Positions 17,961-37,139 of a stretch of 64,000 nt of DNA are shown one piece after another. The notes beneath the pieces were generated by a model, which did not search any database, was not told the DNA's origin, and was given only the letters and a program-made list of their open reading frames with translations. Origin of the DNA: an uncultured Rikenellaceae bacterium (GTDB taxonomy: Bacteria; Bacteroidota; Bacteroidia; Bacteroidales; Rikenellaceae); assembly GCA_964368765.1 (NCBI GenBank), contig CAYJCU010000002.1, positions 1,310 through 65,309 on the forward strand. The letters run 5' to 3'. Each line of letters begins with the position of its first letter. Position 1 is the stretch's first letter. The position numbers and the translations under genes are program-made.

Positions 17961-18035
17961 GGGCCCATAGCTCAGTTGGTTAGTAGCACCTGACTCATAA
18001 TCAGGGGGTCGCAGGTTCAAGCCCTGCTGGGCCCA
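17961..18035 (+). tRNA. tRNA with CAT anticodon (elongator Met, or Ile2 if lysidine-modified); CCA not encoded
   Basis: Cloverleaf read by eye: acceptor GGGCCCA/TGGGCCC, anticodon arm CCTGA-CTCATAA-TCAGG, T arm GCAGG-TTCAAGC-CCTGC, discriminator A. G1-C72 pairs, so it is not an initiator. The acceptor C4/C5 pattern resembles E. coli tRNA-Ile2. Confidence 0.9.
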
Positions 18036-18036
18036 C
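17992..18036 (+). repeat. attL: 45-bp direct repeat (3' half of the tRNA plus 1 nt), identical to 37095..37139
   Basis: gactcataatcagggggtcgcaggttcaagccctgctgggcccac occurs identically at both positions. Confidence 0.85.
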
Positions 18037-18048
18037 TTAAAGAGAATC

Positions 18049-18082
18049 AAGCACTTACGGAATTATCCGCAAGTGCTTTTTT
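18049..18082 (+). terminator. Hairpin plus T-run terminator after the tRNA, on the element-derived side
   Basis: aagcacttacgg-aattat-ccgcaagtgctt followed by tttt. It mimics the hairpin after attR (37146..37182). Confidence 0.55.
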
Positions 18083-18090
18083 CATACCCT

Positions 18091-18111
18091 GTACACACAA
18101 TTTGCACACAA
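18091..18111 (+). repeat. 21-bp repeat gtacacacaatttgcacacaa (candidate integrase arm-type site), left end
   Basis: Identical to 36950..36970. A related inverted half-site tgtgtgtaaa lies at 18138-18147. Confidence 0.5.
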
Positions 18112-18124
18112 CTCAATAAAAAAA

Positions 18125-18164
18125 GTAACACAACTAATGTGTGTAAACAGCATAGTTGTGTTAC
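18125..18164 (-). terminator. Hairpin terminator downstream of the cargo operon
   Basis: gtaacacaacta / tagttgtgttac 12-bp stem flanked by A6 and T6 runs, 28 nt after the stop at 18192. Confidence 0.6.
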
Positions 18165-18191
18165 TTTTTTAAATTTCGTTTTATATTAAGC

Positions 18192-19745
18192 CTAGAAGAA
18201 GACAATATCTGATAGTGCAATATCGTAAGTTGAACCTGTATCAGAACCCTGATCAACCAAAGAGATTCTTACATATCTTGCTTTGGATACTTCAGTAAGA
18301 TTAATTATTGTTATTTCACCATTTGTAGTACCAAGTGTATTTTGATTATCGTATGTACCCTTCTTCCAAGTTACATAATCATCAGAGAATGAGAATTCAA
18401 TATGTCTTGGTCTTGAAGGTGTCCCATCTCTTGCATCTGCAGCATCTGTAAATGTTTCTTGAACTACTTTAATACCAGATAAATCCGTAATATTTTGAAA
18501 ATCAATCTCAAAAAGATAATCACGTACAAATGCTTCTGCTGATGGATTCCAAATAGTTGTTACATCATTATCAAATAGGTACTCTGTCTTGCCTCTTGTA
18601 CCTAGTAAAGTTTCATCTTGTGAGCACTCTATCTCCCAACTGTCATCCCTCATTATTGGTGCAATGGCCGCAGGAGTAGGGTTCCCATGAGAAACCATCC
18701 CCCTAGGGGTACTATATGGAAAATAATGTTTATTATACCTCTCTACTGTAACTCCCTTTAAATTTATTAATTGTTCAATAACAAATTTACTCTTAGCCTC
18801 ATCTTCTAAAACACTTATACCTGAAGTTGAATATGTATATTCTGATAATGTAGGTTCGTACATATACCTTTCTTTAGCTAAATTAACATTTGTCAAATTT
18901 GGCATATATAACAAATCTTCAAATGATGCAACATTGTAATCATATCCAAACTCTGTCAAGGAGCTAAGAAAATCTGCATTTGGCTCATCTACTCCATATT
19001 TTGTCTTTATTATACTTCTTATGTCAGATGATAGCTTGATATCTTTATTTAATATAAAGTCCCTAAATAGTATTAAGTCATCACAACCAACCACTTTGCC
19101 TATTCTCTCAACATATGCCAGATCTGTATGGTGCACGCTTTCTGGTATTACATAATATTTATATTTTGAGACAAAATCTTTATCAATTGTCATCTCAATT
19201 TTTTCACCATCTTTGGTAACATAGTGCAGTGCTGCACTACTTATGTTGTCATTCCAACTTGCCATAAACAGTACCAGTTTTGTATCACCAGTAATGTCTT
19301 GTATGTAATAATGATTAGATACAACAGAAGAGAAAGAACGAATAGATTCATGATCATAAGTATATGGGCGAGCCCACATATCTTCATTAAGTGATCTAAA
19401 CATATTCTTATCAACACCACAGACTGAAACCTTGTATGTTCCATCAACTAATGCTTCACCATTTAAAGTAGTAATATTATATAATTCAGTACCTCTAGGT
19501 AAGAAGGTACTATCAATTTTATCTCCTAATTCCCATTTTACAAGAACCTGATCGATAAGTGGATCTACAGAATTTTCCCATGTAACAACCAATCTCTCCC
19601 AGCCTGGATTCACATCAACATTTTTACATTTAGCTAGGTACCTAGTTATTCCAGCGGCACCAAATTCGCTATATGTATCCTCCAAACTCTCACAACTAAT
19701 AGATAAGAGAAGGAATAATAATAATAAATATTTATTTTGTTTCAT
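18192..19745 (-). CDS. Surface lipoprotein with C-terminal F5/8 type C (discoidin)-like domain
   Basis: 517 aa with lipobox LSISCES. The C-terminus (EYLFDNDVTTIWNPS...YVRISLVDQG...ALSDIVFF) resembles discoidin domains. Confidence 0.55.
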   Translation of the reverse strand: MKQNKYLLLLFLLLSISCESLEDTYSEFGAAGITRYLAKCKNVDVNPGWERLVVTWENSVDPLIDQVLVKWELGDKIDSTFLPRGTELYNITTLNGEALVDGTYKVSVCGVDKNMFRSLNEDMWARPYTYDHESIRSFSSVVSNHYYIQDITGDTKLVLFMASWNDNISSAALHYVTKDGEKIEMTIDKDFVSKYKYYVIPESVHHTDLAYVERIGKVVGCDDLILFRDFILNKDIKLSSDIRSIIKTKYGVDEPNADFLSSLTEFGYDYNVASFEDLLYMPNLTNVNLAKERYMYEPTLSEYTYSTSGISVLEDEAKSKFVIEQLINLKGVTVERYNKHYFPYSTPRGMVSHGNPTPAAIAPIMRDDSWEIECSQDETLLGTRGKTEYLFDNDVTTIWNPSAEAFVRDYLFEIDFQNITDLSGIKVVQETFTDAADARDGTPSRPRHIEFSFSDDYVTWKKGTYDNQNTLGTTNGEITIINLTEVSKARYVRISLVDQGSDTGSTYDIALSDIVFF

Positions 19746-19809
19746 AATATTATTTTTTATTTATGTCTTGTCATAACACTTATATTATATAAGTATAGTT
19801 AAATTACCT

Positions 19810-21168
19810 CTATTTATTAGTATACACTTCTAACTCATGAAGTGAGATATAAGAATAAGTGTTTTGCATATATTCACTTGCTCCACTACCTGTATACCTT
19901 AGATTCCTATAAGTATCATGTACAATTAATTTTAAATATCTATACTCACTAATTGGTAGAGGGAAGTCCACCTGTAACACTCCCGGATCTGCACTATCTA
20001 ACTCTTCATTAGTCTTATATACACCATTTTGAAGCAAATTACCTGAAGCCTCTTTACACCAACGGTCTGCATGAATTGTCATAGGGTCATCCTCTATTTT
20101 TATTATCTCTACCCACGAGCTTTCATCATCCATATTATTAGATGCATATATAGTAAAGCTTGCTGGTAATTTATTTTCATATGCACCCCTCCATACAGAA
20201 CCGTAGACAGACGATGATCCAAACAGTGATGGAGCTGGTGGCCAATATCTAAATTTAATAATTGCGTAGATGTTGATACCTGATATAATAGACTCCTTGC
20301 CTAAATCAAGAATAAATGGTTTTTCGTATGCGTTTGGCCCAGCTAAGAATGTTGAATATATTCCATCTTTACCCATACCTCCATCAATAACTTCATAGCC
20401 TTTTGTGTCGCCATCAAATAGATATTTTACCCCTAGTTGATAATCTTCATCTTCAACAGACAATCCGTGTGGATCTATAAATTTAATATTCTCTGATGGC
20501 AATTTTACCTTTTCGTAGGCTTCAATATTTTCATACACTACCCTATCAACAATATATCCTCTCAAATCCTCAGTACGGATTACAACTGTATTTGATTTAA
20601 TATCTTCGGCAGTAGGGAAAATTATAGGCATATCAGCACCATCAAATATTACACTTCGTAATGGAATAGTATCTATTTGATTCGTTTCGGGACTGATGCC
20701 TACATAATATATATGAGCAATACCTTTCGCATGTTCAGATAACGCACTATAGTCTACCGTAAAACCTGACCAAGCTGGTCGTACTACCGTTTTCTTTAAA
20801 AATTCAACAGGCCCAGAATCTAACGTCTCAAATGAAACCATTGTAGCACTAGACTCTATCTTATCACGGTTCATAAGAGACACTTCTGCTTCTGCCTTTT
20901 GAGCATAATCAAAACCAAGTAGTTCAATAGTATTGTCGGCATACGATCCTGTACGTTCTATAAGTTTCCCACGAGGATCAGTATATCTTACCTTAATATA
21001 TAAGACCTCGCTATTTGATGGAAGGTTATATTTCATAATTGCACCTCCTGCAATAGGGGTAAACTCCAACTCTTCAGATGACATATTAATATCAAATATA
21101 GCATCATCTTCAGTCTCACAACCTACGAGTAGTAATAGTGCAAATACAATATAAAATATTCGTTTCAT
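19810..21168 (-). CDS. Surface lipoprotein with C-terminal discoidin-like domain
   Basis: 452 aa with lipobox LLVGCET. KYLFDGDTKGYE...ISLHELEVYTNK is typical of F5/8 type C-like ends. Confidence 0.5.
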   Translation of the reverse strand: MKRIFYIVFALLLLVGCETEDDAIFDINMSSEELEFTPIAGGAIMKYNLPSNSEVLYIKVRYTDPRGKLIERTGSYADNTIELLGFDYAQKAEAEVSLMNRDKIESSATMVSFETLDSGPVEFLKKTVVRPAWSGFTVDYSALSEHAKGIAHIYYVGISPETNQIDTIPLRSVIFDGADMPIIFPTAEDIKSNTVVIRTEDLRGYIVDRVVYENIEAYEKVKLPSENIKFIDPHGLSVEDEDYQLGVKYLFDGDTKGYEVIDGGMGKDGIYSTFLAGPNAYEKPFILDLGKESIISGINIYAIIKFRYWPPAPSLFGSSSVYGSVWRGAYENKLPASFTIYASNNMDDESSWVEIIKIEDDPMTIHADRWCKEASGNLLQNGVYKTNEELDSADPGVLQVDFPLPISEYRYLKLIVHDTYRNLRYTGSGASEYMQNTYSYISLHELEVYTNK

Positions 21169-21206
21169 AATATTTATAATTTATAGTTTATAATTAAATT
21201 TGAGAA

Positions 21207-23150
21207 TTACCAACCTAAATTCTGAGTAACTCCCGATATCATCACCTCTTCAGCCCTTATCGGGAAAAGATAATCTCTAGGCGATGTAAATTTTCTATCC
21301 TTCCATACCTCTAGTGGTCCTTCAAAATTGTTATAGAATCCAGCTTCAGTATTTGAGAAGGTATTCCATCCTCTAAGTGATTGATTAAGCTCTGTTTCAG
21401 CTGTTAGCCAACGACGAACATTGTAGAAACGTTTACCCTCAAATGCAAATTCATTATTCCACTCGTCGTGAATGATTTCTCTCATCCCTTCAATTGTATT
21501 TGGTTTATCAGCATCATTAGAATATGTAGACCACGATGTTCTAACATCAGGAATGCCAGCTCTCTTTCTAACTATATCAATTGCGTCATACACTTTTTCG
21601 GTAGGTCCTTCGTACTCATTCCATGCCTCAGCTTGCATTAAATAAAGTTCTGCTAATCTAAATATTATAAATGGATAGTCCTTTGAACCAGCATCTTCTA
21701 TATCTTTAAATGACAATAATGGGTCTAATCCTTTCTTTAAAATATATCCCGATAAATTTTGTGGCAATGAGGTATTTAGTACATCGTTCATAACACCTAC
21801 CGCCTCATCTTGACGAGCTTTTACTAATAAATTATTTACATCCCCTGCTCCCTGTTGCCAATATAGGCGATCTGCAGCGATATTGGCATAAAAACGTGGT
21901 TCTCTAGCTAAGTGTAGTTTCAAAACATCGGTTCCTGAAGGCACTACCTTTGTGTATTGAGTACTAGATTCTGTCCCCATTTGATATCGATTAGTATAAT
22001 CCCAATTTATGTCACTTTCAATTGGTAAGCCATTAACAGTATAGTATCGCTCTACAACATTTAAACTAGGGAATATTTGACCATCAGAATGAGGTGTAAA
22101 TACCGGACTAGTGTATGGCACAACTGGAAGTGTGCGAAAAGTATACCTATAAGCTGGTGAATTCGGTCTCATAGCATATATTGATTCTACATTATCTAAT
22201 AATCCTCTGTCCATAACTGACTCTTGAATATTTGTTATATGGTTAAGAAGATCTGTTACTTTACCTCTTGAGTCATTATATAAACGAACGCCACCAAGCG
22301 TAGCATATTCTATTGCTTGATCAATAGCTTCAGCTGCCACTTTCCACTTCTCTTTATCATACTCTTGTGGGAATAAAAGCTCGCCATTCTTATTTTTTAT
22401 CTCCCTATATGCAGAATTTCCATTAAATATTGGTGATGCAGCATATAGTAGTGCGTAAGCTTTAACTACCGCTACTGATGATTTATTATGAAATACTTTA
22501 CGTGAGGTATCTTTCAAGTCTATATTTGGCAGAACTTCAATCGCCTCATCACAAAGTGTTACGATAGCCTTAACACACTCATCTATTGAACTACGAGGTA
22601 ACTGCATATCTGAAATATCACTATTTACTGCTATGTTTTCATCAATTATAATGAATGGTCCGTAAGTCTTTAAAAATTCCAAATATATATGTGCTTTTAG
22701 TGCCTTAATTTCTGCTATCCACAGCTCTTTTTCACTATCTTGCATATTATATACTTGGTCTATTTTTTCGATAAATATATTAATATATCTTAACGATTCA
22801 AACAGTCCATCATTTTTCCAAATATTACCATAAGGTTCTTGTGACATTTGAAGTCCGTCACCAATAAATAAACCACACCACTTACCTGTCGTTGTAGCCA
22901 TTCGAAGTAGACGCGCATAATCTCCAGCAACAAATTCATCCGCCCCTACAAATGATGGAGAGTGAATTACACTAGTAAACTGATTTACTGCGAGGGCATA
23001 ACAAGTCTTTAACCATGTATCAACATCCTCTCTTTTTTCAAAGACGGTCTCTATGGTCTCAACATCATCTTCTGGCACTATATCAAGGTAATTACACCCT
23101 GAAACGAATATTGCCATAATAGCAACAAAAATATATCTTAAATGTTTCAT
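21207..23150 (-). CDS. SusD/RagB-family lipoprotein
   Basis: 647 aa with lipobox FVSGCNYLDIVPEDD (a typical SusD N-terminus), directly downstream of SusC. Confidence 0.85.
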   Translation of the reverse strand: MKHLRYIFVAIMAIFVSGCNYLDIVPEDDVETIETVFEKREDVDTWLKTCYALAVNQFTSVIHSPSFVGADEFVAGDYARLLRMATTTGKWCGLFIGDGLQMSQEPYGNIWKNDGLFESLRYINIFIEKIDQVYNMQDSEKELWIAEIKALKAHIYLEFLKTYGPFIIIDENIAVNSDISDMQLPRSSIDECVKAIVTLCDEAIEVLPNIDLKDTSRKVFHNKSSVAVVKAYALLYAASPIFNGNSAYREIKNKNGELLFPQEYDKEKWKVAAEAIDQAIEYATLGGVRLYNDSRGKVTDLLNHITNIQESVMDRGLLDNVESIYAMRPNSPAYRYTFRTLPVVPYTSPVFTPHSDGQIFPSLNVVERYYTVNGLPIESDINWDYTNRYQMGTESSTQYTKVVPSGTDVLKLHLAREPRFYANIAADRLYWQQGAGDVNNLLVKARQDEAVGVMNDVLNTSLPQNLSGYILKKGLDPLLSFKDIEDAGSKDYPFIIFRLAELYLMQAEAWNEYEGPTEKVYDAIDIVRKRAGIPDVRTSWSTYSNDADKPNTIEGMREIIHDEWNNEFAFEGKRFYNVRRWLTAETELNQSLRGWNTFSNTEAGFYNNFEGPLEVWKDRKFTSPRDYLFPIRAEEVMISGVTQNLGW

Positions 23151-23170
23151 ATTATTCTGAATTTTAATTG

Positions 23171-26100
23171 TTAGAAACTAAATGTTAAACCTAAAGCATA
23201 TGTCTTTTGAATTGGGTAGTTAAAACCATTTTCACCTAATTCAACATCCCATATATCAAAATCAGTAAATAAGAATGGATTGTTTGCCCTAACAAATACC
23301 TTCGCATTCTGTATTCTCCATCTCTGTAGCAGTGGCTTTGGTAGTTTATATGCCAACTCTAGTGATGTAACACGTATAAAAGAGCATGAACGCATAAAAT
23401 ACGTACTCTTACGAACCTCTGAATTATCTTCATTATACCAATCCTCTTGTATGTTGTGGTCGATTATATTTTGCTGTGATAATCTAGGCCAAAATGGCAT
23501 ATTTGTCATATTATCTTCACTCCAATGATCTTCATAAATTGCTGTAAGCATAGCATTATCATTAGAAAAAGGAGAGATAGTAGATGGGTTAATAAAAAAT
23601 GTACGTCTACCCGATCCCTGTAAAGCAAAACTAAATTCAAATTGTTTGTAATTAATAAAACCGTTAAGTCCATATATAAGAGCTGGAACTTCAGGGTAAC
23701 CTATATAAGTTGCATCTTCAACATCAATAACTCCATCATTATTTAGGTCACGATACCTAATATCACCCGGCATAACATCTCCACCTTGTATTGGGGAATT
23801 TTCTATCTCTTCCCAATCAGCAAAAAGTCCATCGGCAATATATCCAATTTGTTGAGATATCTCTTGACCCACCTTTTTTTGATAATCAGGTTTGTCTGTA
23901 GCCTCTTCAATTTCAAGATATTCACTTTGTGCGTATGATAGTGTGCCATTAAGAATAACCCAAAAATCGCTATTGAATTGTTTTTGAAACTTAGCTGTTA
24001 AATCAACTCCTCTTGTTCGTCCTTTACCAATATTATCTAGTGGAGCGGTTGGAACACCCATTGATTGAGGTATCACAACTCTATTAGATATAATATTGTG
24101 ACGCACCTCTTCAAAAGCATCTATGTTAAGATCAAATAATCCATCTAGAAATGACATCTCAAGACCTAAATTTGCTTTCTCGGCCACCTCCCATTGTATT
24201 TCGGGGTTCGAATATGATAATACTCGATATGCATCTAGTGGTGCCATAAATCCAGTAGGGTCTGCATACGACCTATATGTGGTTAATTCCGGTAGATATA
24301 TGTATCGCTGACCTGATGAACCAGTGTATATTCCATCATTTCCTACCATACCATATGATGCTCTAAATTTTAACAGGGATATAACGTTAGAAATAGACTC
24401 CATCCATTTCTCATCTGAAACTACCCATGCTATACCTCCTGCAGGGAAGATACCAAAACGATTCTCTTTAGGAAAGCGTTCTGATCCATTATATCCAAAA
24501 CTAGCCTCAAAAAAGTATCGATCCTTATAGCCATAAGTACCACGAGCCGAAAAAATCATATTTCTGCCCGGTATTCCATTAAGAACAGATTTGATTGGGG
24601 TATATGTATGCTCTTGCATTTGTGCAACTGCGGTAAATGATGTCTGATGATCACCCCATGCTGCTGAATGGTAGGCTCGCAGTTCATAAGCCAGACGAGT
24701 ATCGGTATTACTAACAGTTCCTTGTGAATCAACAGAAAGTGTACGTTTAGCAGTCGCCGCATTTAAAGGGGTAAGACTAAACTTACCCGTAGTAAAGTCG
24801 TAATTATCATCAGTTAAACTATACAAATAAGGGGCGGTCTTATACACTGTTGCATAATAACCTGACTGCACAAGTGATACACTTGCCCTTACCTCTAATC
24901 CTTTGACTACCGAACTTAAATTATGAATGTATTCAGCCTTATTAATAGTAGAATATCGTGTTCTGTCAGTATAACCAGACTGAACATCTTTATAAGGATT
25001 TCTTGAGTAGGTATCCAAGCTACCAAAACGAAGATGTGGCCAGTTATAAGTATCATCAGCAGGATACATCACAGCAAAATCAACAGGAGATGCACAAAAT
25101 GCTAATCCGTAAGCATCATACACATCGGTAGCTGGGCCGTGTTGTTTATCAAGTGAAGCCGATGAGTTAATTAATAATTGGATGCCAGAGTTTAATTGTA
25201 TGTTTAGATTTGTTCTATAAGTTATTTGATTATTTTTAATATTAATATCAAAATCATTTAACTTATCTGTCTTCAGCATTCCGTTATCTTGATTATAATT
25301 CACCGAAGCATAGTATTGCACTAGCTTTGAACCACCACGGATAGTTACACCAGCACGGTGATTAATGCTTTGATTTTTAAACATCATTCCATACCAGTCG
25401 TTTTGTGGATAGAGAAAATCTGGATATTTACCAGAAGCTGTTCTCTCAATCCTCTCTTGCGTATATCTTGGTTGAGCAGTAAGAGAACGACCTACAATGG
25501 CTTGATTAAATTGATTCATATAGGTCAATGGATCAACAATATCAATTTCTTTAGTTGGTTGCGAGGTAACTATTTCATATCTCGCAGTTGCGTACACACT
25601 ACCCTCAACACCCTTTTTTGTTGTAACCAGAATAACTCCATTAGCACCACGTGCACCATACATTGCAGCAGCAGAGGCATCTTTCATTACTGAGAAAGTC
25701 TCTATATCCTCTGGTGCAATACGAGATAGATCTAACTTTGAAGTCTCAACACCATCAAGTAGTATAAGAGGATCTTTATTTGCACCAGTCTGGAACGATG
25801 TAATACCACGAATATAGAATTGTGTATTCATTTCACCTTCCGTTAAAGCTCCTGGCATACCACCTGTCTGCCAACCGATTATTCCAGCAATTCTACCAGC
25901 AAATGATGATGTTAGATCGCTAGACGAACTCTTTAAATCCATTGGTTTTACCGTTGTGATAGCCGAAACTACACTCTCTTTCTTTTGTGTTCCGAAAGCA
26001 ACAACCGTAACATCTCCAACCTCTTGTACTTCCATACTTAGAGATGCTAAAATATTTGTTGTCTCTTTGCGTATCCTTACATTTTGTGGTTTGTAACCCA

Positions 26101-28073: not shown

Positions 28074-28646
28074 TTAAATTTCGGTCAAGATATTGATAAT
28101 TGCAAGTGCCTTTATTGTATTGGCTCCATATTTCATTAACTCTATCGCTTTTCGCTTTCTATTAAAAACGCTCTTTTCTGTTATATTGAGCTTTTCGGCT
28201 ATCGACTTAACATCCCACCCCTCGATATGTAGCCTAATAACCTCAGAGTAGTTTTCGGGAAGTTTTGCTACCATCTCAGCAAATAGTGATTGGTACTCAC
28301 TCTCGATTGCTGCCATATAGTAATGATTATCGTTGGATAGAATATGGTTCTTATACTTATCTACATATTTTTGATGTGTAAGGTAATCTTTGAATCTATT
28401 TTTGATAGCAATATAGATATATGCTTTAAGGTATCTAGCATCATCAAATAGCAGCTCTTTAGAGTGCCAAATATGTAGCAGCACATCGTGTATAACATCG
28501 CAGGCTTCAACCTCTGTTTCACGATATAATTTAGCTGTATATGAATGAATTTCATTATACACGATAGAGTAGACCTCGCTAAACGCAGAAGGCTCTCTCT
28601 TGTTGAATCGTCTATATAATGTTACCTCATCCATAAAAACTACCAC
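28074..28646 (-). CDS. ECF-type sigma factor
   Basis: 190 aa with region 2 DVIHDVLLHIWH and region 4 HTH VKSIAEKLNITEKSVFNRKRKA. The start may be M5 (28634). Confidence 0.8.
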   Translation of the reverse strand: MVVFMDEVTLYRRFNKREPSAFSEVYSIVYNEIHSYTAKLYRETEVEACDVIHDVLLHIWHSKELLFDDARYLKAYIYIAIKNRFKDYLTHQKYVDKYKNHILSNDNHYYMAAIESEYQSLFAEMVAKLPENYSEVIRLHIEGWDVKSIAEKLNITEKSVFNRKRKAIELMKYGANTIKALAIINILTEI

Positions 28647-28659
28647 TCATATTTAGTTG

Positions 28660-28690
28660 CAAATATACAAAATATAAGTTACAGAACAAA
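28660..28690 (-). promoter_or_regulatory. Canonical Bacteroides promoter (-33 TTTG, 19-nt spacer, -7 TATATTTG) upstream of the cargo sigma gene
   Basis: Minus strand reads TTTGttctgtaacttatattttgTATATTTG, ending 14 nt upstream of ATG 28646. Confidence 0.5.
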
Positions 28691-28703
28691 ATTTCCAAAA
28701 AAA

Positions 28704-29270
28704 TTATCTGTTTTTCAACCCATCAATCTCCTTATTAAGCTTTTCAGCCTCTATAAGCTTGCGCCTAGCGTGCTCTTCGACTATTGCTTTTTGGCGGATG
28801 GTCTCCTCGTACTCCTTTATTGTTTGCCATATCTCCCTAATCCTCTTATTGTCTCGGTTGAGTTCAAAGAGATTTTCTAGCTCTGTTATTGTTTTGGGGG
28901 TCGCCTCGCCTTTCATCTTTATGTATCTATATTTAATATCGTTATCCCTTTGGTCGTAGTTTGGCTCTGTGTCAATGAAATATTTTGTTGCCAGACCAAT
29001 TATTGTCAAAAATGAGAATAGTATGTAACATAGTATGCTCTTTGACTCTATCGATACACTAAATTTGCTCTGCTTGATGATGGGCTTTCGTACTGCATCT
29101 ATCACTTCGCCTGTCTTGTCAACGGCAGTTTGTAGCTGCTCTGTTAATGCTTCCACCCTTGCGTGGTCTATTGTTGGCTGTTGTGGCTGAGGAGCCGACA
29201 ACCCCCTTTCGATTTTTATTAGTGATTTTTCTTGCTTTTTTAGCATCTCAATAATTGCTTGTGTCTCCAT
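28704..29270 (-). CDS. Membrane-anchored coiled-coil protein of unknown function, last gene of the mobilization operon
   Basis: I place the start at METQAIIEM (cat at 29268-29270), because the longer ORF (to 29375) overlaps the relaxase 3' end. One TM segment (ILCYILFSFLTIIGL). Confidence 0.45.
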   Translation of the reverse strand: METQAIIEMLKKQEKSLIKIERGLSAPQPQQPTIDHARVEALTEQLQTAVDKTGEVIDAVRKPIIKQSKFSVSIESKSILCYILFSFLTIIGLATKYFIDTEPNYDQRDNDIKYRYIKMKGEATPKTITELENLFELNRDNKRIREIWQTIKEYEETIRQKAIVEEHARRKLIEAEKLNKEIDGLKNR

Positions 29271-29283
29271 TTTTTTAAAAAAT

Positions 29284-30180
29284 TTAAAATTTAATACCTC
29301 GTTTTTTCTTTTTCTGCATACGCCTTCTGAAGCTATCCTCTTCAGGGTCATCACCCTGTGGTTGTGGTAGGTCAAACACTCCTAAGCCGCCACTAAATGA
29401 TGGGGCGTTTACATGTTCCTCCGCTCTACTTTTTACATGTTCCTCCGCTAATGAGTTTTGCCTCAGTTGATAATCAATTTTCGAGAAACTAAACTGTTTA
29501 TCTACCTTAGAGCCGTTGAATGTCAAGTTGTCTTTTGTGAACTTCACCCCTTGAATTTGGTCGGTAGAGCCGTTATACTTAAACTCAACAGATATGCCCT
29601 CGCCTTTTAGCTTTTGTTGTAACTCTTCCCACGATTTAGTGGTACGAATATGTTTTGATAGTGCATCATATATCTCATATCTTATCTTCTCGCTACCTCT
29701 TAACCTGTGCCGTTTAACGTTATCTTTTCCCTCTGCGATATATAGGTTATGTTTACGTGTTAACTCATGGGTAACCTTAATATTTCTGATACGTTCGTTG
29801 CGGTCGCTTATACGATTGCCATCAAAATCAACCCTGTTTAGTATTAGATGTAGGTGTGGGTGCTCCCTATCAGTGTGGCGTACCATAAGGCATTGCGTGT
29901 TGTCGTACCCCATCTTTTGCATATACTCTTTGGCGATCTCTATCATCTTTTTGTCGGTTAATTTATCTCTGTCTTCGGCAGAGAAGTTAAGGGAGATATG
30001 CGCAACTGGTTTCGTTATTGGATTCAGGCGTGCTTGCCTCTCGAAGCCGTGCGCCATCTCTTGATTTGTTCCATTTCTAATACCTCGCACCACTAAGATG
30101 CGTGCCTCATCACGATTGAGCAGATAATTTATTGCTCCTGCAAACGATGCTCCTTGCACTATCTTAGCCATCATACTCAA
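29284..30180 (-). CDS. MobA/VirD2-family relaxase (mobilization nuclease)
   Basis: 298 aa with histidine-triad motif HTDREHPHLHLILNRV. Overlaps the MobC-like gene end; the start may be M4. Confidence 0.8.
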   Translation of the reverse strand: MSMMAKIVQGASFAGAINYLLNRDEARILVVRGIRNGTNQEMAHGFERQARLNPITKPVAHISLNFSAEDRDKLTDKKMIEIAKEYMQKMGYDNTQCLMVRHTDREHPHLHLILNRVDFDGNRISDRNERIRNIKVTHELTRKHNLYIAEGKDNVKRHRLRGSEKIRYEIYDALSKHIRTTKSWEELQQKLKGEGISVEFKYNGSTDQIQGVKFTKDNLTFNGSKVDKQFSFSKIDYQLRQNSLAEEHVKSRAEEHVNAPSFSGGLGVFDLPQPQGDDPEEDSFRRRMQKKKKRGIKF

Positions 30181-30526
30181 TCTGTTTTATGGTGTTATCA
30201 ATATCTTTTATTAGTGGCTTTAGCTCTCCATCTATCGCAAAATATCCTGCTTGGTGTGCCCGTTTTGTTAGCTGATTGAGGTTATTTAGTGCGGTGGTTA
30301 GGAGTATAATCACTCTGTTATGGTTCTTCCCAAACCGCTCTTTTACCACTGAGCTATTTAGTGCCGAGCGTATATATTCGCTCATCTTCATACCTGCCTG
30401 TTGTGCTTTTGCCTTGGTGGTGTAGTACTCGTTTGTGTTGAGTCGCACCCTCACAAAATAGTCTCTCACATCGGCTATTGGTTTCTTAGGTCGCCCATTA
30501 TTATTTCTGTTCCTTATCTCTTTCAT
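30164..30526 (-). CDS. MobC-type relaxosome accessory protein
   Basis: 120 aa, basic N-terminus, LTTALNNLNQLTKRAHQ is typical of the MobC family; immediately upstream of the relaxase. Confidence 0.65.
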   Translation of the reverse strand: MKEIRNRNNNGRPKKPIADVRDYFVRVRLNTNEYYTTKAKAQQAGMKMSEYIRSALNSSVVKERFGKNHNRVIILLTTALNNLNQLTKRAHQAGYFAIDGELKPLIKDIDNTIKQIEYDG

Positions 30527-30565
30527 TATTGTTATTATTTTTTATACTATGACCATCGGGATTGT

Positions 30566-30618
30566 GCGAGTTTACGCCTGCAAGGCACTGTTAATGTCCC
30601 ACATTAACACATACTCGC
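30566..30618. other. Candidate oriT: nested inverted repeats upstream of mobC
   Basis: GCGAGT(30566-71)...TGTTAATGT(30589-97) CCC ACATTAACA(30601-09)...ACTCGC(30613-18), in the 118-bp gap between the primase and mobC genes. Confidence 0.4.
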
Positions 30619-30644
30619 TTAATAAAATCTCGAAATATTGATAG

Positions 30645-31487
30645 TTATAACCTAAATCTACGTTTTGGTTGTTGTTTTGAACTCATAAGATAGTCATTAA
30701 GGTCTTTATGATTCCGATAAAAATGCGATTGGTCTACCACCTCGCACCCCAACTGCGAGACCTGCGCTAGTGCTCTTTTTCCTGCCTCGTCATTATCGAA
30801 AAAGCAGTGTAGCGTTGTGTGTCTCTTCAAAAAATCTGATGCCTTAGAGATATTTACAACCGAGTTCATAACAGCTATGTTTATTGATGGCTCTGGTGTT
30901 TTCTTTAGTGATAGATAAGAGAGCATATCCATAAACCCCTCGAACACCATACACTCCGAAGAATTTTTGTCAATGGTGGTTATACTTTTGGGGCTTGTGC
31001 CTCCTTTGAAATATTGGTTTCTTAGTTCCCATCCTCCGCTATCACATCTAAAGCCAATAGCGAAATAGTTTCTTCCTACATTTGTGAAATACACCTCACT
31101 ACAATATCGCTTTGCTATATCTGGGTTGATACCTCTTGAACGGATATAGTTTATTAGTTGTGGCGAGGTTAGTGACTTAACACTGTTCACTGTGATTACT
31201 GGCTCTGCTGAGGTTGATGACTCATTACGGTGAGATAAAAAAGAGTTGTTCTCGATCTTAGCGAATGCTTCGGCGGTGGTGCAATGCTCCAACTTCATAA
31301 CAAGGTCGATGATAGAACCTCCCTCGCCACTCCCGAAGTCGTACCATAGGTTTTTCACATAGTCCACCTTGAAACTAGGGGTATTCTCTGTTCGTAGTGG
31401 CGATAGATACATACCATATCCACTGCGCTCATAGTTTGACATTATTCCTTGTTGCGAAAGGAACTCTTTAATGCTAATATTTTTCAT
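30645..31487 (-). CDS. Toprim-domain DNA primase-like protein (PrmN-like)
   Basis: 280 aa. Degenerate zinc-finger-like N-terminus and Toprim motifs MVFEGFMDMLS and FFDNDEAGKRA. Confidence 0.7.
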   Translation of the reverse strand: MKNISIKEFLSQQGIMSNYERSGYGMYLSPLRTENTPSFKVDYVKNLWYDFGSGEGGSIIDLVMKLEHCTTAEAFAKIENNSFLSHRNESSTSAEPVITVNSVKSLTSPQLINYIRSRGINPDIAKRYCSEVYFTNVGRNYFAIGFRCDSGGWELRNQYFKGGTSPKSITTIDKNSSECMVFEGFMDMLSYLSLKKTPEPSINIAVMNSVVNISKASDFLKRHTTLHCFFDNDEAGKRALAQVSQLGCEVVDQSHFYRNHKDLNDYLMSSKQQPKRRFRL

Positions 31488-31683: not shown

Positions 31684-31691
31684 GGGTTATT

Positions 31692-32849
31692 TTATATATT
31701 TATCTTCTCGACAAGCCAACCATATATTGGGGTCTGGTTTACACGCTTTGATATGCGTTCGAAGCCTGCTTTACGTAGTGCCTCGCCCATACGTTTTTTA
31801 GATATGGATAATGCGGTGTACTCCTTTGCGTGATTAATTATCTGCACAGTAGTCATAAAGTTATCTCTACTAATAGATTTAACAAATAGCTGTAGTAGCA
31901 TCTCATATTCAACTGTCTGTACTTGAAAAGCACTATTTTGTATATGAAGTTCATTAATCTCACTATCATTAAACCAATACCGATAACCATCTCTATACAA
32001 TTTCATTACCTCAGAATACACATAATTCATATCAATCTCCTTAGCTTTCGCAATATCAATAGAAATAACTTCAAAAGGTAAAAACCTGCGTGAACCTGTT
32101 GGATCAGTCAAAAAATCATTACCATTCACGGATGCCATAAAGCTAGCGATATGCGGATAATCTTCTATATATACATCATAAGGTCGACGATATTTAACTA
32201 ATGGAGTGGTTATTAAATTTTTCAATTCATTTTCGTCACGCTTATTTAGTGCCTTTAGTTGGTCGTCAATATTGATAAATAAACACTCTGCGATAAGTGT
32301 TAGTATATCTTTATTCTGAGGATCTATTTTCCCTGTAAAGAGATAGCTTTTTAATGGTTTGGGACAGAGATTGTCTAGCCACGTTGTTTTAAATTTTCCT
32401 TGTTCACCTGTAAGTACTAAACAGATATGATTTTGGCAACCGCTATCATTTAGTGCGTTAGCAATAACCCCAACCAGCCATTTTGTTAGATACCCTACCC
32501 ATTTCTCATTATTGCTAACTGTTACGGTATTAGCAAGCTTCTCAATATTAATACATCCCTCAATAGGTGGGAGTGAATTGAAATACTCTCTGATTGGATC
32601 TACACGCTGTGAGAAATCACTCTCTAATATTGTGCGAATATTATCAGCGGAGGTGCTTATACCCATTGAGCTGTCCAGTTCTCTGCGCAGAGAGTTTAAA
32701 TCAAATTTTGTTATAGGTCTAAACGGAGTATTCTCTTTGGTTTGCATTTCAGTTCTGCACTTTATTGTATTGAACCTAAAAGAGTAGTGCTCTCGTAAAA
32801 ATTGCTCAATCTGCTCATTTTTAGACTGTTTCGTTATTCCACTATCCAT
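31692..32849 (-). CDS. VirE/VapE-family P-loop protein (primase-helicase associated)
   Basis: 385 aa. Walker A-like LVLTGEQGKFKTTWL and a Walker B-like block LFINIDD. Confidence 0.65.
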   Translation of the reverse strand: MDSGITKQSKNEQIEQFLREHYSFRFNTIKCRTEMQTKENTPFRPITKFDLNSLRRELDSSMGISTSADNIRTILESDFSQRVDPIREYFNSLPPIEGCINIEKLANTVTVSNNEKWVGYLTKWLVGVIANALNDSGCQNHICLVLTGEQGKFKTTWLDNLCPKPLKSYLFTGKIDPQNKDILTLIAECLFINIDDQLKALNKRDENELKNLITTPLVKYRRPYDVYIEDYPHIASFMASVNGNDFLTDPTGSRRFLPFEVISIDIAKAKEIDMNYVYSEVMKLYRDGYRYWFNDSEINELHIQNSAFQVQTVEYEMLLQLFVKSISRDNFMTTVQIINHAKEYTALSISKKRMGEALRKAGFERISKRVNQTPIYGWLVEKINI

Positions 32850-32855
32850 ATCTTA

Positions 32856-33233
32856 CTATCTCTTACGTTGTGCCGATTGTACTACACACTTAATAGCTTC
32901 ACTCGCATCACCTACCACTACACATCTACTAGCAACCCAATTAAGTATCTCTTTTCGTGAAAACACCAACTTGTGTCCATATTTCTTGTGAGGTATTTCG
33001 CCTTTCGAGGTTAATTTATACAATTTAGCTCTTGATGTGGGAAAGCCGTGCTCCTCTAACAACTCGACAGTCTTGTCTAGTGTTATGGTGTCTGGCTCCA
33101 CCGCTTTATCATTTTTAGTTATTAATGATGATACAGCATCTTGAACTATTGCCTTCAATTCTTCAGGTGTTGTTACGATAATATTAGAACTCATTTTAAA
33201 ATCAATTATTCGTTTGTAAATAGCTGTCGTCAC
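32856..33233 (-). CDS. Excisionase-family helix-turn-helix DNA-binding protein
   Basis: The C-terminal LYKLTSKGEIPHKKYGHKLVFSRKEILNWV is typical of the excisionase/HTH_17 type. The likely true start is M14 (33194). Confidence 0.6.
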   Translation of the reverse strand: MTTAIYKRIIDFKMSSNIIVTTPEELKAIVQDAVSSLITKNDKAVEPDTITLDKTVELLEEHGFPTSRAKLYKLTSKGEIPHKKYGHKLVFSRKEILNWVASRCVVVGDASEAIKCVVQSAQRKR

Positions 33234-33350
33234 AGCACATCATATATGATTTCGAATGCAAAGGTAAATAGATATTTATTACTATTAAAATCAAGAATAG
33301 CTGGACATTGTGATTTTGCAAAGGTTCAGAGACCCTATTGTACTCGAACC

Positions 33351-33404
33351 TAACGTTTCAAATAGGGAGGGTAATGTTTCAAAATTGTGAGGTAACGTTT
33401 CAAA
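33351..33404. repeat. Three TAAYGTTTCAAA boxes phased at exactly 21 bp (candidate operator or iteron)
   Basis: Cores at 33351-62, 33372-83 and 33393-404 in a 390-bp ORF-poor gap upstream of the xis-like operon. Confidence 0.55.
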
Positions 33405-33624
33405 ATGCGACATCAATGTTGCATCGCTCTATTTTACAGAGTATGCTTTTAATAAAAACTAACTTAAATTTGCCTTATGTACAGTTATTAAATTTTTTTG
33501 ATACGTTTCTAAGGCTATTTCTCCTATTTTAGTCACTATTTAGTCACAATATATTTGTAATTAACTGATTTTATGAAAAATAAAAACGTTACAGCTTTCA
33601 AGCTGTAACGTTAAGTACTATATC

Positions 33625-34086
33625 TTATTGATTATTTTTCTTGTTTCTTTCTTCTAAATAATATTTTAAATCTTTTAGTATTAGTTCAGGATCTAGTATA
33701 GGAACCATTGTAACATTATCTGGCAGCTCGCCAAATCCAACATAAGAGAAACTAATAAAATCCTCATCAATCCATTTGTCGAGTGTCGTGCGAGAGATGC
33801 CCAGCATCTTTGTTAACTGGGTCTTAGTCACATACTTTTGCTCTGTTACGCCATCAATATATTTAAACCCACTTATCGAGTCATAATTAATCCTAAGATA
33901 GCGTTCAAGACGCTCAATAATAATCTCAGGATCTTTGATTGCTGGTGTTATCTTACCCTTAGCACGTATCTCTATTGTGGCCAGATCGAAATTCTCGAAT
34001 ATTGGATCATCTCTTAGTAACTTAATAATAGAATCGTACTCCTGTAGCTGCGTTAGCTCTACCTTTAACTCTTTTCTTCGTGCCAT
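33625..34086 (-). CDS. Small HTH protein of unknown function, coupled to the upstream Schlafen-like ATPase gene
   Basis: 153 aa with HTH TKTQLTKMLGISRTTLDKWI. Its ATG is 4 nt after the stop of the 514-aa gene. Confidence 0.5.
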   Translation of the reverse strand: MARRKELKVELTQLQEYDSIIKLLRDDPIFENFDLATIEIRAKGKITPAIKDPEIIIERLERYLRINYDSISGFKYIDGVTEQKYVTKTQLTKMLGISRTTLDKWIDEDFISFSYVGFGELPDNVTMVPILDPELILKDLKYYLEERNKKNNQ

Positions 34087-34090
34087 AACA

Positions 34091-35635
34091 TTAATGGTTT
34101 TTTAGTGCTTTTCCCTTTTCTGTTAAACGATATTTTTGGTTCACACTTCTTGGTTTTTCGGGTATAGTCCGTTCTATATATCCTACCTCTATTGCAGGAT
34201 TGACATAATCGGACATAAAATATTTTCTGTCTGAGATGTTTAACAATATCTGTAATTCATCTCGTCTCATCTCTCCATTTACTACATTAACCAGTTTTTT
34301 TATACTCTCTAAGACATGGGGGGTAACATGGGGGGTAACATGGGGGGTGACTTGAGGAGGTAGCTCTTCGTCTATTACAAAAGCAGGATGACACGGTATC
34401 TCAACAACAAAATATGTTCTGTATTCATCCGTCTCATACCTAGCTTCTGGCGAACCATTGCCCTTTAACTCACTCCCGATTGTTGGAATACCTGTTCCAC
34501 GTCCCTCTGTTAACTCTAGCTCTTTTAAGAAATCCCCTAATCGTCTATTCCTATATCTGCGAGTTATCATTCGCCCTCTTTCTACGTCACTAAGTTTAAT
34601 AGATCTATCTGCTCCGCCATAACTAACTATTGTTATGCCTGTTGGCTCGATGACAATCTCCACTGGCTCTCTGTCTTGGTAATTACGGTGATACATAGCA
34701 TTTACCACAGCCTCTTCAAGTGCTTGATATGGATAGTTGTAGTATGTTATTGCCTCTGATTGATAAGAGACTTTTTCTATTTTCTTTTTTATTACATTTG
34801 TGCGAAGGTAGCTCATGACATTTGTAATAATATGGTGCACAGCCCCTTTAATAGGAGGATTCTCGATAAAATTTGAAGGATCTTGCATCTTACCTCTTGG
34901 GAAATGAACTATATCCACTTGGGTATATGGGAAAAACTTCTCTGGCTTATCCGAGAACATCATTAATGCAACATTTTTTGGAAACATATTCTCAGGTGGA
35001 CCAGCAAGCAGATCCATCTGTATGAGTATATCCTTTATATTTGCACCCTCGATGTTGTCAGCTAATTTACTATTCACCTTAATCAAGAAATCACGTAGCA
35101 ATAGAGATGAAATATCATTAACCGATGCGTTTTGATTAATTCTATCATCAAATGGTATTTGATTGCACAGTGTTAATAACTCTTGCTCGTTCTCACCCTC
35201 AGCAACAATACTAGAGGTGTTGTATCTAATGTAATATTTATGATTCTTATGCCTTGCCGTAATATCTTCGGGAACTTTATAGGGTCTATGTGATCCACCT
35301 GGTACCCATATAACAATAACTTTCCTGTTGTCGACATCCTCAATTGATACCTTTGGAAAATATACGGGTGAAATAAGATTATTAAACCCTAGCATCTCTC
35401 GCTGTATCTTATCAATCTGCGAAATATCTACACCAATAACTGGACGTTGAGCTGTGCCATTCACCTCCTTAACACCTACAATTATATATCCGCCACCAAT
35501 ATTATCAAAATCATTGGCAAACGCACAGATAGAACGATATATTGATGCTGGGTTCCATCCTTTTTTATACTCTATTCTATTGCTCTCAATTATATTATTG
35601 CTAAGCAGACTATTTATATTTATTGGTAAAGCCAT
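34091..35635 (-). CDS. AlbA_2 (Schlafen-like) domain + HATPase_c_4-like domain + C-terminal wHTH protein (family often mislabelled RecG-like)
   Basis: 514 aa. N-terminus ESNRIEYKKGWNP..ICAFANDFDNIGGGYIIVGV, middle EAVVNAMYHRNY...RNRRLGDFLKELELTEGRGTGIPTI, and a (VTPH)3 linker. Confidence 0.65.
   Translation of the reverse strand: MALPININSLLSNNIIESNRIEYKKGWNPASIYRSICAFANDFDNIGGGYIIVGVKEVNGTAQRPVIGVDISQIDKIQREMLGFNNLISPVYFPKVSIEDVDNRKVIVIWVPGGSHRPYKVPEDITARHKNHKYYIRYNTSSIVAEGENEQELLTLCNQIPFDDRINQNASVNDISSLLLRDFLIKVNSKLADNIEGANIKDILIQMDLLAGPPENMFPKNVALMMFSDKPEKFFPYTQVDIVHFPRGKMQDPSNFIENPPIKGAVHHIITNVMSYLRTNVIKKKIEKVSYQSEAITYYNYPYQALEEAVVNAMYHRNYQDREPVEIVIEPTGITIVSYGGADRSIKLSDVERGRMITRRYRNRRLGDFLKELELTEGRGTGIPTIGSELKGNGSPEARYETDEYRTYFVVEIPCHPAFVIDEELPPQVTPHVTPHVTPHVLESIKKLVNVVNGEMRRDELQILLNISDRKYFMSDYVNPAIEVGYIERTIPEKPRSVNQKYRLTEKGKALKNH
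34315..34350. repeat. 3 x 12-bp in-frame tandem repeat (catggggggtaa) encoding VTPHVTPHVTPH
   Basis: Read directly at 34315-26, 34327-38 and 34339-50 (the last unit has one substitution). Confidence 0.8.
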
Positions 35636-35691
35636 ATAGTGTTATTTTTTGCAAATGTAATAATAGTTTTCGATACATAATGTATAGTAAC

Positions 35692-36915
35692 CTAAAATTG
35701 TGTCAATAATGAGGCATTCTTCTCTCTTTCCTCTTTCTCAAAACTAGCTAAATACGCCTCTGTCGTCTTTAGGTCGTTGTGTCCTAAGCTCTCTGAGATA
35801 TATGCAATATTGGCCCCACTCCTCTTTAAAACTGTTGCGTAACTGTGTCGTGCAGTGTATGTGCTTATTCCATCAATACCTATCGCCTCACCGATTTGCT
35901 TCATTCGTTTATTAATACGCTTTGTTAAATCTTTAGTTAAATTCTTGCGTTTTTCAGCATCTTCATTTCCTGTGATATAAGGAAAAATATAGTCGTTAGG
36001 TTTTTTTGTTGGAGTACCCCAACGCTCAATTATCCTCTTGACCTCTGGAGTTACAATTGCACGAATCTCTTTACGTGTTTTGGTTGTTAACTCTGTTTTT
36101 TGCCTTATGAAACATATCTCGCCATCGACAATATTCTTATATTGTAGTTTTACTAAATCTGCCACATTTATTCCATTACATAGATACATAAAAAACCAAA
36201 GGTCTCGATAACGCTCGGTAGTTTCATTCCCATCATCATAACGTACAATCTGCCCTATCTGCTCAAGTGTTAAGGCTTTTTTCTTCGCCTCACCAGTTTG
36301 GATAACATATCTGTCTTTACCAAATGGGTAGGCAGACTCTTTTATTAATCCTGCTTTCCTTGCCTCGTTCATCATAGCACGAATACCACGCATATGCATT
36401 CCCACTGTTGTATAATTTTTATCTTGAAGCATAAATCGCTCATAACGTCTTAGCCACTCAACAGTCACATCTGCGAATGCTATACGGTCACCAGCAAAAG
36501 TAACAAGACCTTTCAGCACTCCATCATAATAGAGCATTGTTCCTATGCGCTCATCTTTACGCAGCATCTCGATTTTTGCCTTAAGCGCAGAGTTAAGCGT
36601 ATCGCCAGTTGCCTTACCTAGTCGCAGATTGAGAGCATCGAATGTAAATTCGGTCTTCTCTGCCAATGCAATAACATTGTTCTTTACAATAGTGAAGCTA
36701 TTCTCGACACTCTCCCTAATTGCAGTAAGATTTTTTACCCTTGTTGTTTTTAGTTTCTCCCACTCTTCAGGATTAAGTTCCTTGCCTGTGGAGTAATATT
36801 TTCGTTCACGCTTATACGTAACACGTATCTTTATGGGGTAGCTCCCTTTTATTGTTTTTCTTCGGTCATCAAGCATTGATGCAACCGTAATACCATCCTT
36901 TGAATAACTAAACAT
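35692..36915 (-). CDS. Tyrosine site-specific integrase (Bacteroides arm-binding type)
   Basis: I place the start at MFSYSKDGITV (cat at 36913-15). Arm-binding-like N-terminus (PIKIRVTYKRERKYYSTG). Catalytic-region motifs ARHSYATVLKRSG and LGHNDLKTTEAYL. Confidence 0.85.
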   Translation of the reverse strand: MFSYSKDGITVASMLDDRRKTIKGSYPIKIRVTYKRERKYYSTGKELNPEEWEKLKTTRVKNLTAIRESVENSFTIVKNNVIALAEKTEFTFDALNLRLGKATGDTLNSALKAKIEMLRKDERIGTMLYYDGVLKGLVTFAGDRIAFADVTVEWLRRYERFMLQDKNYTTVGMHMRGIRAMMNEARKAGLIKESAYPFGKDRYVIQTGEAKKKALTLEQIGQIVRYDDGNETTERYRDLWFFMYLCNGINVADLVKLQYKNIVDGEICFIRQKTELTTKTRKEIRAIVTPEVKRIIERWGTPTKKPNDYIFPYITGNEDAEKRKNLTKDLTKRINKRMKQIGEAIGIDGISTYTARHSYATVLKRSGANIAYISESLGHNDLKTTEAYLASFEKEEREKNASLLTQF

Positions 36916-36930
36916 AATCTCAAAATACTC

Positions 36931-36970
36931 TGTGTGCAAATATTTAATCGTACACACAATTTGCACACAA
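36931..36970. repeat. Arm-type site pair at the right end: tgtgtgcaaat (inverted) and gtacacacaatttgcacacaa (direct)
   Basis: 36950-36970 is identical to 18091-18111. 36931-41 is the inverted complement of the atttgcacaca core. Confidence 0.5.
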
Positions 36971-37094
36971 AACTAATAAAACTATATCAATAAAACAAAT
37001 ATATTATTCTCAATAATAATGTTAAATAACTGATTATTAGTATTATTAAGATATGAAAATAATTTAAAGAAAATAGATAAAAATTAAAAGGTTA

Positions 37095-37139
37095 CGACTC
37101 ATAATCAGGGGGTCGCAGGTTCAAGCCCTGCTGGGCCCA
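37095..37139 (+). repeat. attR: 45-bp copy of the tRNA 3' half, with no tRNA 5' half upstream
   Basis: Identical to 17992..18036 and preceded by the AT-rich sequence aaaattaaaaggttac. Confidence 0.85.

Follow-up and report, generated by a model that had tools for sequence, protein, structure and literature searches.

A tRNA-integrated 19.1-kb segment of an uncultured Rikenellaceae bacterium has the structure of an integrative and mobilizable element and probably carries a SusC/SusD cassette as cargo

We analysed a 64,000-nt stretch of DNA (the window) from contig CAYJCU010000002.1 of an uncultured Rikenellaceae bacterium (assembly GCA_964368765.1), an AT-rich member of the Bacteroidota, and found between positions 17992 and 37140 a segment whose predicted genes and ends place it within the structural definition of an integrative and mobilizable element (IME). 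The evidence makes it likely that the whole segment is one IME of a Bacteroidales family, 19,104 bp long with one copy of its terminal repeat, and that a complete SusC/SusD cassette is its cargo. A first-pass annotation, made from the letters and a list of open reading frames (ORFs), had proposed such a unit; as it had stated, all 15 ORFs between the repeats lie on one strand, here the minus strand. Elements of this type have been described before, as have SusC/SusD loci carried by mobile elements, and the window element is a well-delimited further example.

The integration target is an intact tRNA(CAT) gene at 17961–18036 (plus strand), which is the only tRNA gene in the window and is called tRNA-Met by ARAGORN. 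Its sequence reads with a G1-C72 pair and with C4-G69 and C5-G68 in the acceptor stem; because of the G1-C72 pair it is not an initiator. In E. coli, C4-G69 and C5-G68 are the TilS determinants of tRNA-Ile2, and together with G1-C72 this stem would presumably also suit a tRNA-Ile2. A repeat search showed that the 3' part of the gene, the 45 nt from the anticodon stem-loop to the 3' end (17992–18036, plus strand; the attL core), recurs with 45 of 45 identities at 37096–37140 (plus strand; the attR core), and no tRNA 5' half precedes this displaced copy, in agreement with the first reading of the sequence. That reading had recognized the match as perfect but set the second copy 1 nt off, at 37095–37139, where position 37095 is C and its counterpart at 17991 is T. 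At up to three mismatches, a 23-nt part of the core occurs exactly twice in the window and in none of 100 shuffled sequences; the repeat is therefore not a chance match, and there is no third, internal copy. The direct repeats thus bound the element in an attL/attR-like manner, each 45-nt core being accompanied by a matched arm motif.

This arm motif, GTACACACAATTTGCACACAA, is 21 nt long and consists of two CACACAA heptamers 11 bp apart. It occurs twice in the whole window and not at all in shuffles, and both copies lie inside the element in direct orientation (plus strand). The P' arm-type copy (18091–18111) is 55 nt inward of the tRNA-side repeat, with the tRNA on one side of it and the last cargo gene on the other, and the identical P arm-type copy (36950–36970) precedes the integrase start codon by 35 nt. 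They are the presumed arm sites bound by the Arm-DNA-bind_5 domain of the integrase. When the ends of the window element are joined in silico, the two motifs start 245 bp apart; the corresponding spacing is 242 bp and 238 bp in two related elements (L008 and L009, respectively) and 256 bp in a related circular record (L047), so that all four share a two-motif att architecture with a spacing of ~240–255 bp in attP. Based on this geometry, the intervals 18037–18111 and 36950–37095 are the two predicted halves of one attP, and because these halves enclose everything between them, the SusC/SusD cassette falls inside a single att-bounded unit. The first-pass annotation had also named the outcome that would overturn its proposal, namely that only ~28.7–37.1 kb is mobile and that a middle att site has been lost. 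This was not borne out: no internal att copy was found, and the arm motif at 18091–18111, between the tRNA and the cassette, would have no reason to be there if only the integrase-bearing half moved.

The terminators at the two ends complete this picture. An element-borne hairpin with a U-run (18049–18082, plus strand; dG -18.4 kcal/mol, z -5.9) is placed to terminate the rebuilt tRNA, and what reads as the native chromosomal terminator hairpin of the tRNA now follows attR (37146–37179, plus strand; dG -17.2 kcal/mol, z -6.1). The two hairpins share 82% identity, and folding scored against shuffles showed each to be far more stable than shuffled sequence; a sigma-70/terminator scanner missed the one on the attR side. 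Because the element brings along both a replacement for the tRNA 3' end and a terminator hairpin, the tRNA stays intact.

The genes next to attR form the backbone of the family, in which the order is integrase, (SLFN), helix-turn-helix (HTH) protein, HTH_17 protein, VirE/AAA protein, primase, MobC/NikA, relaxase and a small ORF. A site-specific recombinase stands at the end of the element: the tyrosine integrase gene (35692–36915; PF00589, PF13102 and PF17293) lies 180 nt from the attR core and encodes Arm-DNA-bind_5, SAM-like and catalytic domains, and its start was set at ATG 36915, in agreement with a 407-aa database protein (P0001). It is followed by a gene for an SLFN/AlbA_2 protein with HATPase_c_4 and Fic-like_C domains (34091–35635), homologues of which (54–55% identity) come after the integrase gene in Parabacteroides and Tannerellaceae loci, and by one for a 153-aa protein with a weak HTH match (33625–34086) that is conserved beside the integrase or SLFN gene in relatives. 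Next are an HTH_17 protein with an excisionase-type DNA-binding domain, a candidate Xis or regulator (32856–33233), a VapE/VirE-like protein that also matches DUF5906 (31692–32849), and a CHC2 zinc-finger/Toprim primase (30645–31487). The mobilization module comprises both a relaxosome accessory protein of the NikA/MobC type (30164–30526; Pfam/NCBIfam, E 3e-12) and a PF03432 relaxase (29284–30180; E 3e-34) whose N-terminus resembles Bacteroides MobB. The last backbone gene (28704–29375, likely start ATG 29270) has no Pfam/NCBIfam match, and homologues of it come after the relaxase gene in three relatives (L010, L046 and L047). Searches against Pfam/NCBIfam thus confirmed the earlier gene labels (integrase, Schlafen-like, HTH, xis-like, VirE, Toprim, MobC, relaxase, sigma, FecR, SusC and SusD), and this conserved gene behind the relaxase gene was added to the list. 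None of the 15 ORFs of at least 100 aa between the repeats matched T4SS, Tra, VirB or T4CP families, which bears out the earlier statement that no transfer genes are present; no transfer or coupling-protein domain is encoded in the element.

Several noncoding features lie within the backbone. From its position upstream of the mob genes, 30527–30644 (no strand assigned) is a candidate oriT region, and it contains a perfect 9-nt inverted repeat at 30589–30609. The HTH_17-VirE-primase-mob genes are preceded by a 391-bp gap that holds three TAACGTTTCA-containing repeats with 21-bp spacing (33351–33423, no strand assigned), a fourth TAACGTTTCA copy at 33503–33512, and a perfect 13-nt palindrome, AACGTTACAGCTT/AAGCTGTAACGTT, at 33585–33612, all of them presumed operator or iteron sites. 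The 3' part of the relaxase gene itself (29408–29449) contains a perfect 18-nt repeat, TTTACATGTTCCTCCGCT, in two copies 24 nt apart from start to start, which encodes a duplicated AEEHV peptide.

The whole six-gene cassette, all of it on the minus strand, occupies the slot delimited by the last backbone gene and the P' arm. The backbone/cargo junction (28647–28703) is 57 bp long when counted from the GTG that opens the ORF of the first cargo gene (28646), as in the first-pass annotation, and the gap becomes 69 bp when it is counted from the first ATG (28634). It contains TTTG ... TATATTTG, which fits the Bacteroidota TTTG/TAnnTTTG promoter consensus by eye and may well be the cassette's own promoter. 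The genes that follow encode an extracytoplasmic function (ECF) sigma factor with Sigma70_r2 and r4_2 domains (28074–28646), a FecR-type anti-sigma factor with FecR and FecR_C domains (26777–27961), a SusC/RagA TonB-dependent transporter with STN (residues 73–123), CarboxypepD and Plug domains (23171–26659; TIGR04056, 816 bits), and a SusD/RagB-family lipoprotein (21207–23150; PF07980, E 3e-44). Two lipoprotein genes come last, one encoding DUF4959 and a weak, sub-threshold DUF5000 (19810–21168) and the other DUF4998 and an F5/8 type C (discoidin) domain, presumably a surface binding protein (18192–19745). Only the latter has a significant discoidin match, so that of the two discoidin lipoproteins originally described one stands as such. 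A terminator hairpin at 18125–18172 (minus strand; dG -22.7 kcal/mol, z -6.8) closes the operon.

With its adjacent susC and susD genes (20 nt between them) and its linked set of ECF sigma factor, FecR and STN domain on SusC, the cassette has the paired genes of a polysaccharide utilization locus (PUL) and the regulators of the trans-envelope-signalling kind. Pfam searches of the six cargo proteins found no carbohydrate-active enzyme (CAZyme), that is, no glycoside hydrolase, polysaccharide lyase or carbohydrate esterase, so that the cassette serves for sensing, binding and import and is not a full degradative PUL. The closest relatives of the cargo SusD are 52–55% identical, and two of them sit in the same six-gene cassette in ordinary chromosomal contexts. 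The first (L030, 55%; a human-gut metagenome) has the same genes, domains, order and strand as the window cargo; the second (L031, 52%; Marinifilaceae metagenome-assembled genome [MAG] GCA_051656645.1) has the same six genes and domains but with the sigma gene on the opposite strand. Unlike the window cargo, these cassettes are flanked directly by housekeeping genes (methylmalonyl-CoA mutase, CbiM/CbiQ, aminotransferase), and no integrase, mob gene or tRNA was found within 10 kb of either. The recurrence of the same six-gene unit in chromosomal contexts elsewhere indicates that the cassette is a discrete, widespread module.

Related elements share the ends and the backbone of the window element, and they differ from it in target and content. 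One of them (L008; ENA ERZ28619698 scaffold_461) has an integrase 74% identical to that of the window, is 10.8 kb long and is inserted in a tRNA-Met gene, a CAT tRNA of different sequence from the window tRNA. The tRNA 3' part and terminator are duplicated beside its integrase gene, and a homologous arm motif is present at both ends; its relaxase is of the Mob_Pre type, whereas that of the window is PF03432. An element in a Tidjanibacter MAG (L009; DBFWXZ010000027.1) is 9.9 kb long, encodes an integrase 67% identical to the window's and targets a tRNA-Asn gene, whose 3' part and terminator are duplicated as in L008, with the identical arm motif at both ends. Both resemble the window element in combining a tRNA 3' target with a terminator hairpin of their own. 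In L009 a degenerate arm-like motif, GCATACACGATTCGCATACGG, lies just past the attR terminator (~2880–2900) and may be what is left of a previous insertion at that tRNA-Asn gene.

The third well-delimited relative is a 9,171-bp circular record (L047; PLSDB OY726037.1) whose integrase and relaxase are 50% and 41% identical to those of the window and whose junction is flanked by two arm-motif copies. Unlike the window element, it is inserted outside a tRNA gene, and its core is very short. A 15.7-kb circular record (L046; NZ_OY725959.1) contains this unit, 99.99% identical, at positions 3874–13035 and also carries a cfxA beta-lactamase gene beside the nested element. The junction of the smaller circle contains ~12 nt that are missing from the integrated copy and resemble a coupling sequence; this record is an IME of the window-element family that was deposited as a circular "plasmid".

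In L008, L009 and L047 the genes run as in the window (integrase, HTH, HTH_17, VirE/AAA, primase, Mob, small ORF), and the backbone order is common to L010, L012–L014, L017, L046 and L047. In almost all family loci that we fetched, a GTACACACAATTTGCACACAA-type motif precedes the integrase gene by 30–140 bp. The position after the relaxase gene is variable. At one chromosomal site in Alistipes it holds HEPN/DUF4852, SIR2_2/YpsA or KAP NTPase genes, and in other relatives the same slot holds Wzy_C and unknown genes or a MunI restriction-modification pair. The relatives that could be delimited (L008, L009 and L047) are 9–11 kb long and carry small cargo, in no case a SusC/SusD cassette, whereas the cargo of the window element amounts to 10.5 kb.

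The Alistipes insertions (L002–L007 and L040–L043; Alistipes and human-gut metagenomes) place the backbone integrase, Bro-N and relaxase genes at one site beside a fimbrial operon (DUF3575, DUF3868, Fimbrillin_C and Mfa2), with at least three different cargo sets after the relaxase gene. The window element likewise adjoins a fimbrial operon (DUF3575, DUF5119 and Mfa-like) at 37608–41036.

The first-pass annotation had called the element NBU-type. NBU1 and NBU2 depend on conjugative elements for transfer; they are 10–12 kb long, have a single Mob protein that suffices for mobilization and no cargo or one resistance gene, and integrate into tRNA-Leu and tRNA-Ser genes with a core of ~13–14 bp. 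The window element is like them in being a small integrase and mob element without transfer genes, with a tyrosine integrase directed at a tRNA 3' end. It differs in its 45-nt core in tRNA(CAT), in its two-protein mobilization module of NikA and PF03432 relaxase, and in its VirE/primase module and 10.5 kb of cargo. The comparison with NBU elements thus holds by analogy only, since the window element lacks two of their hallmarks, a short core and a lone Mob protein.

The same annotation regarded a nutrient-uptake locus on a small element as unusual, which overstates the case: ImmeDB lists 47 SusC+SusD loci on gut mobile elements, and in the same survey the median cargo was 11 genes per IME (PMC6907783). 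The porphyran PUL of Bacteroides plebeius is carried on an integrative and conjugative element (ICE) (PMC5849685). Such ICEs and other PUL-bearing gut mobile elements resemble the window element in having a SusC/SusD uptake locus as cargo of an integrase-bearing element, which opens a nutrient-acquisition trait to horizontal transfer; the well-studied carriers are large, self-transmissible ICEs with CAZyme-rich PULs, in contrast to the small, non-conjugative IME and the CAZyme-less SusC/SusD cassette under ECF sigma/anti-sigma control seen here. We found no specific description of a tRNA-integrated IME with an ECF-regulated SusC/SusD cassette in the literature searched.

Composition was compared between the element and its flanks, as the first-pass annotation had recommended, and gave no difference: GC content, tetranucleotide correlation and codon-usage distance did not separate the two, and the codon-usage distances of the element genes overlap the host range. 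Only a step in the GC content of third codon positions (GC3) inside the element is visible. GC3 is 0.22–0.24 in the genes for SusC, SusD and the two lipoproteins, 0.29 in the FecR gene and 0.36 in the ECF sigma gene; it rises to 0.42–0.46 in the mob and primase genes and is 0.30–0.33 in the integrase, SLFN and VirE genes. The step from cargo to mob and primase genes marks the element as a mosaic. GC3 of the flanking host genes is 0.25–0.41, and since that of the cargo is close to the host genes of the left flank, composition does not mark the cassette as foreign; it neither proves nor disproves a foreign origin.

Several results weigh against the interpretation that the 19-kb segment is one mobile unit with the cassette as cargo. 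The closeness of cargo GC3 to the left-flank host genes is one of them. Another is that none of the 29 related loci examined (L001–L029; 21 from a genome scan and 8 from contig look-ups) carries this cassette behind mob genes; the suggested search for co-occurrence of backbone and PUL in related integrase loci returned only integrase-SusC/SusD pairs in Rikenella. The remainder concern movement. Each window protein that was tested is a singleton, on one 67-kb contig, among ~15 billion proteins. A degenerate pattern for attB, attP, attL and attR had 0 matches in JGI metagenomes, and IMG/VR viral contigs contained no match to the integrase or the core. The 44-nt core matched eight metagenome contigs, all with intact, unoccupied tRNA genes and none with flank synteny. 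Each of these tRNA(CAT) genes, which belong to unrelated organisms, has a hairpin similar to those of the window behind it; such genes are possible targets but no evidence of movement. The host Dtd, encoded beside the target tRNA, has its nearest homologue at 67% identity, and because no closer relative exists no empty site could be recovered. Nor does the window show a conjugative element that could act as helper. The proposed checks for an empty site and a circular junction, made in related genomes and in metagenome and viral collections, accordingly found neither of these, nor a second copy of the element. The earlier claim that the whole ~19 kb is one unit is therefore supported by its att boundaries (the arm motifs, the geometry of the relatives and the lack of an internal att site), while the signs of movement that were sought did not appear.

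A segment seen once among so many proteins, with neither circular junction nor empty site in the searched collections and with no helper in view, could be a fixed genomic island that has lost excision and mobilization, so that the cassette is effectively chromosomal. We regard this as unlikely, although it deserves some weight, as all 9 of 9 backbone ORFs are intact, the attR copy of the core, which is under no selection, still matches attL at 45 of 45 positions, the two 21-nt arm motifs are identical to each other, and a related element exists as a circular record. An origin by accretion would differ in history: a cassette island and a separate IME of ~8.4 kb would have been inserted serially at the same tRNA, and a later deletion would have removed the middle att site together with the first of the two integrase genes, in which case the cassette was never cargo of a circulating element. 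The GC3 difference between cargo (0.22–0.29) and mob genes (0.42–0.46), the 9–11 kb size of the delimited relatives and the degenerate arm-like motif past attR in L009, a hint of serial insertion at one tRNA, all lean this way. Yet the core has just two copies even when three mismatches in 23 nt are allowed, only two arm motifs exist, the cargo half lacks any integrase remnant, and the junction is clean, at 57 bp with a promoter-like motif; we thus find accretion improbable, and even if it occurred, the present structure, with one integrase and one matched att pair, would act as a single 19-kb unit. An assembly chimera, in which DNA of two organisms was joined at shared tRNA 3' sequence so that element and flanks come from different genomes, has hardly any probability. 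In its favour, the sequence is apparently known from a single 67-kb NCBI contig without close relatives, and the identical 44-nt tRNA part does occur in several unrelated metagenome organisms; but a repeat of just 45 nt would have to have produced two independent joins, the att architecture of related elements is matched exactly on either side, and the codon-usage distances of the element genes overlap those of the host. A single IME with the cassette as cargo therefore remains our preferred reading.

If the element behaves as such an IME, its integrase would bind the core and arm motifs and excise a 19.1-kb circle, with the HTH_17 protein as the probable directionality factor for excision. 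The NikA-like protein and the relaxase would nick oriT, probably within 30527–30644, and the transfer pore would be supplied by a co-resident conjugative element. In the recipient, the primase and VirE-like proteins may help the DNA to establish, and the integrase would recombine attP with the 3' end of the recipient tRNA(CAT), where the element's own tRNA end and terminator would keep the tRNA functional. The cassette could then respond to a ligand on SusC, the signal passing through STN to FecR with release of the ECF sigma factor and induction of the operon, and the recipient would gain a new capability for surface binding and import.

The chromosomal surroundings of the element were also surveyed. 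The left flank contains a second FecR/SusC(STN)/SusD locus (5349–11799), with which 2723–4015 was grouped, a gene for a thioredoxin-like protein near this locus and, separate from it, an ECF sigma gene (15559–16137). We considered whether the cargo is a duplicate of this left-flank locus and rejected the idea, the two SusC proteins being only 25% identical. The genes for MnmG (54108–56030) and Dtd (17359–17817) are 36 kb apart in the window (17034–56030 compared), and between them lie NadA, a 14-kb fimbrial gene cluster that includes three large proteins without Pfam match (41229–49910), the IME and the tRNA. In a distant relative (L048, positions 1550–6800; Dtd 65% identical) MnmG, PRTase, UvrC, dtd and MazG are found within 5 kb; this locus was rejected as an empty site, as it has no tRNA. 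On two metagenome contigs (L034, ~60–145; L037, ~10640–10678), an unoccupied tRNA(CAT) gene with its terminator is followed by a degenerate second tRNA-like copy, which may be a scar left by integration and excision, or a tandem duplication.

Homologues of the integrase were also observed upstream of SusC in Rikenella MAGs and in R. microfusus DSM 15922 (L015, L016 and L018; 56–58% identical). In L015 (9995–16882) the integrase gene is directly upstream of a SusC/SusD pair, between TrkA and aminotransferase genes, and no arm motif was detected upstream of it at up to three mismatches. In L016 and L018 (~10001–16800) the integrase gene, the SusC match and the upstream arm motif were checked and are present. 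These Rikenella loci have no mob genes, second arm motif or flanking repeat, and they could be decayed elements or domesticated recombinases.

Since the window cargo slot holds SusC/SusD genes and the Rikenella integrases precede SusC/SusD pairs, with an arm motif upstream in two of three loci, integrases of this family may be linked to such loci repeatedly and functionally, and, if these are stages of one process, small helper-dependent IMEs may be a regular route by which new surface uptake systems are gained and fixed in Bacteroidota. This is a doubtful proposition at present; if it were true, capture of SusC/SusD genes by an IME would be followed by delivery to tRNA or other sites and by decay into integrase-SusC/SusD islets. 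The importance of the window element is incremental, because the concept has been documented before and this element has been seen in one instance only. With the conserved arm motif and attP geometry, members of this IME family can be delimited in practice in Bacteroidota genomes. Should the element be active, one transfer of 19 kb would equip a recipient with the sensor, regulator, transporter and surface binding proteins all at once, and no large conjugative element of the recipient's own would be required; the spread of PULs, so far known mostly through ICEs, would then extend to small mobilizable elements.

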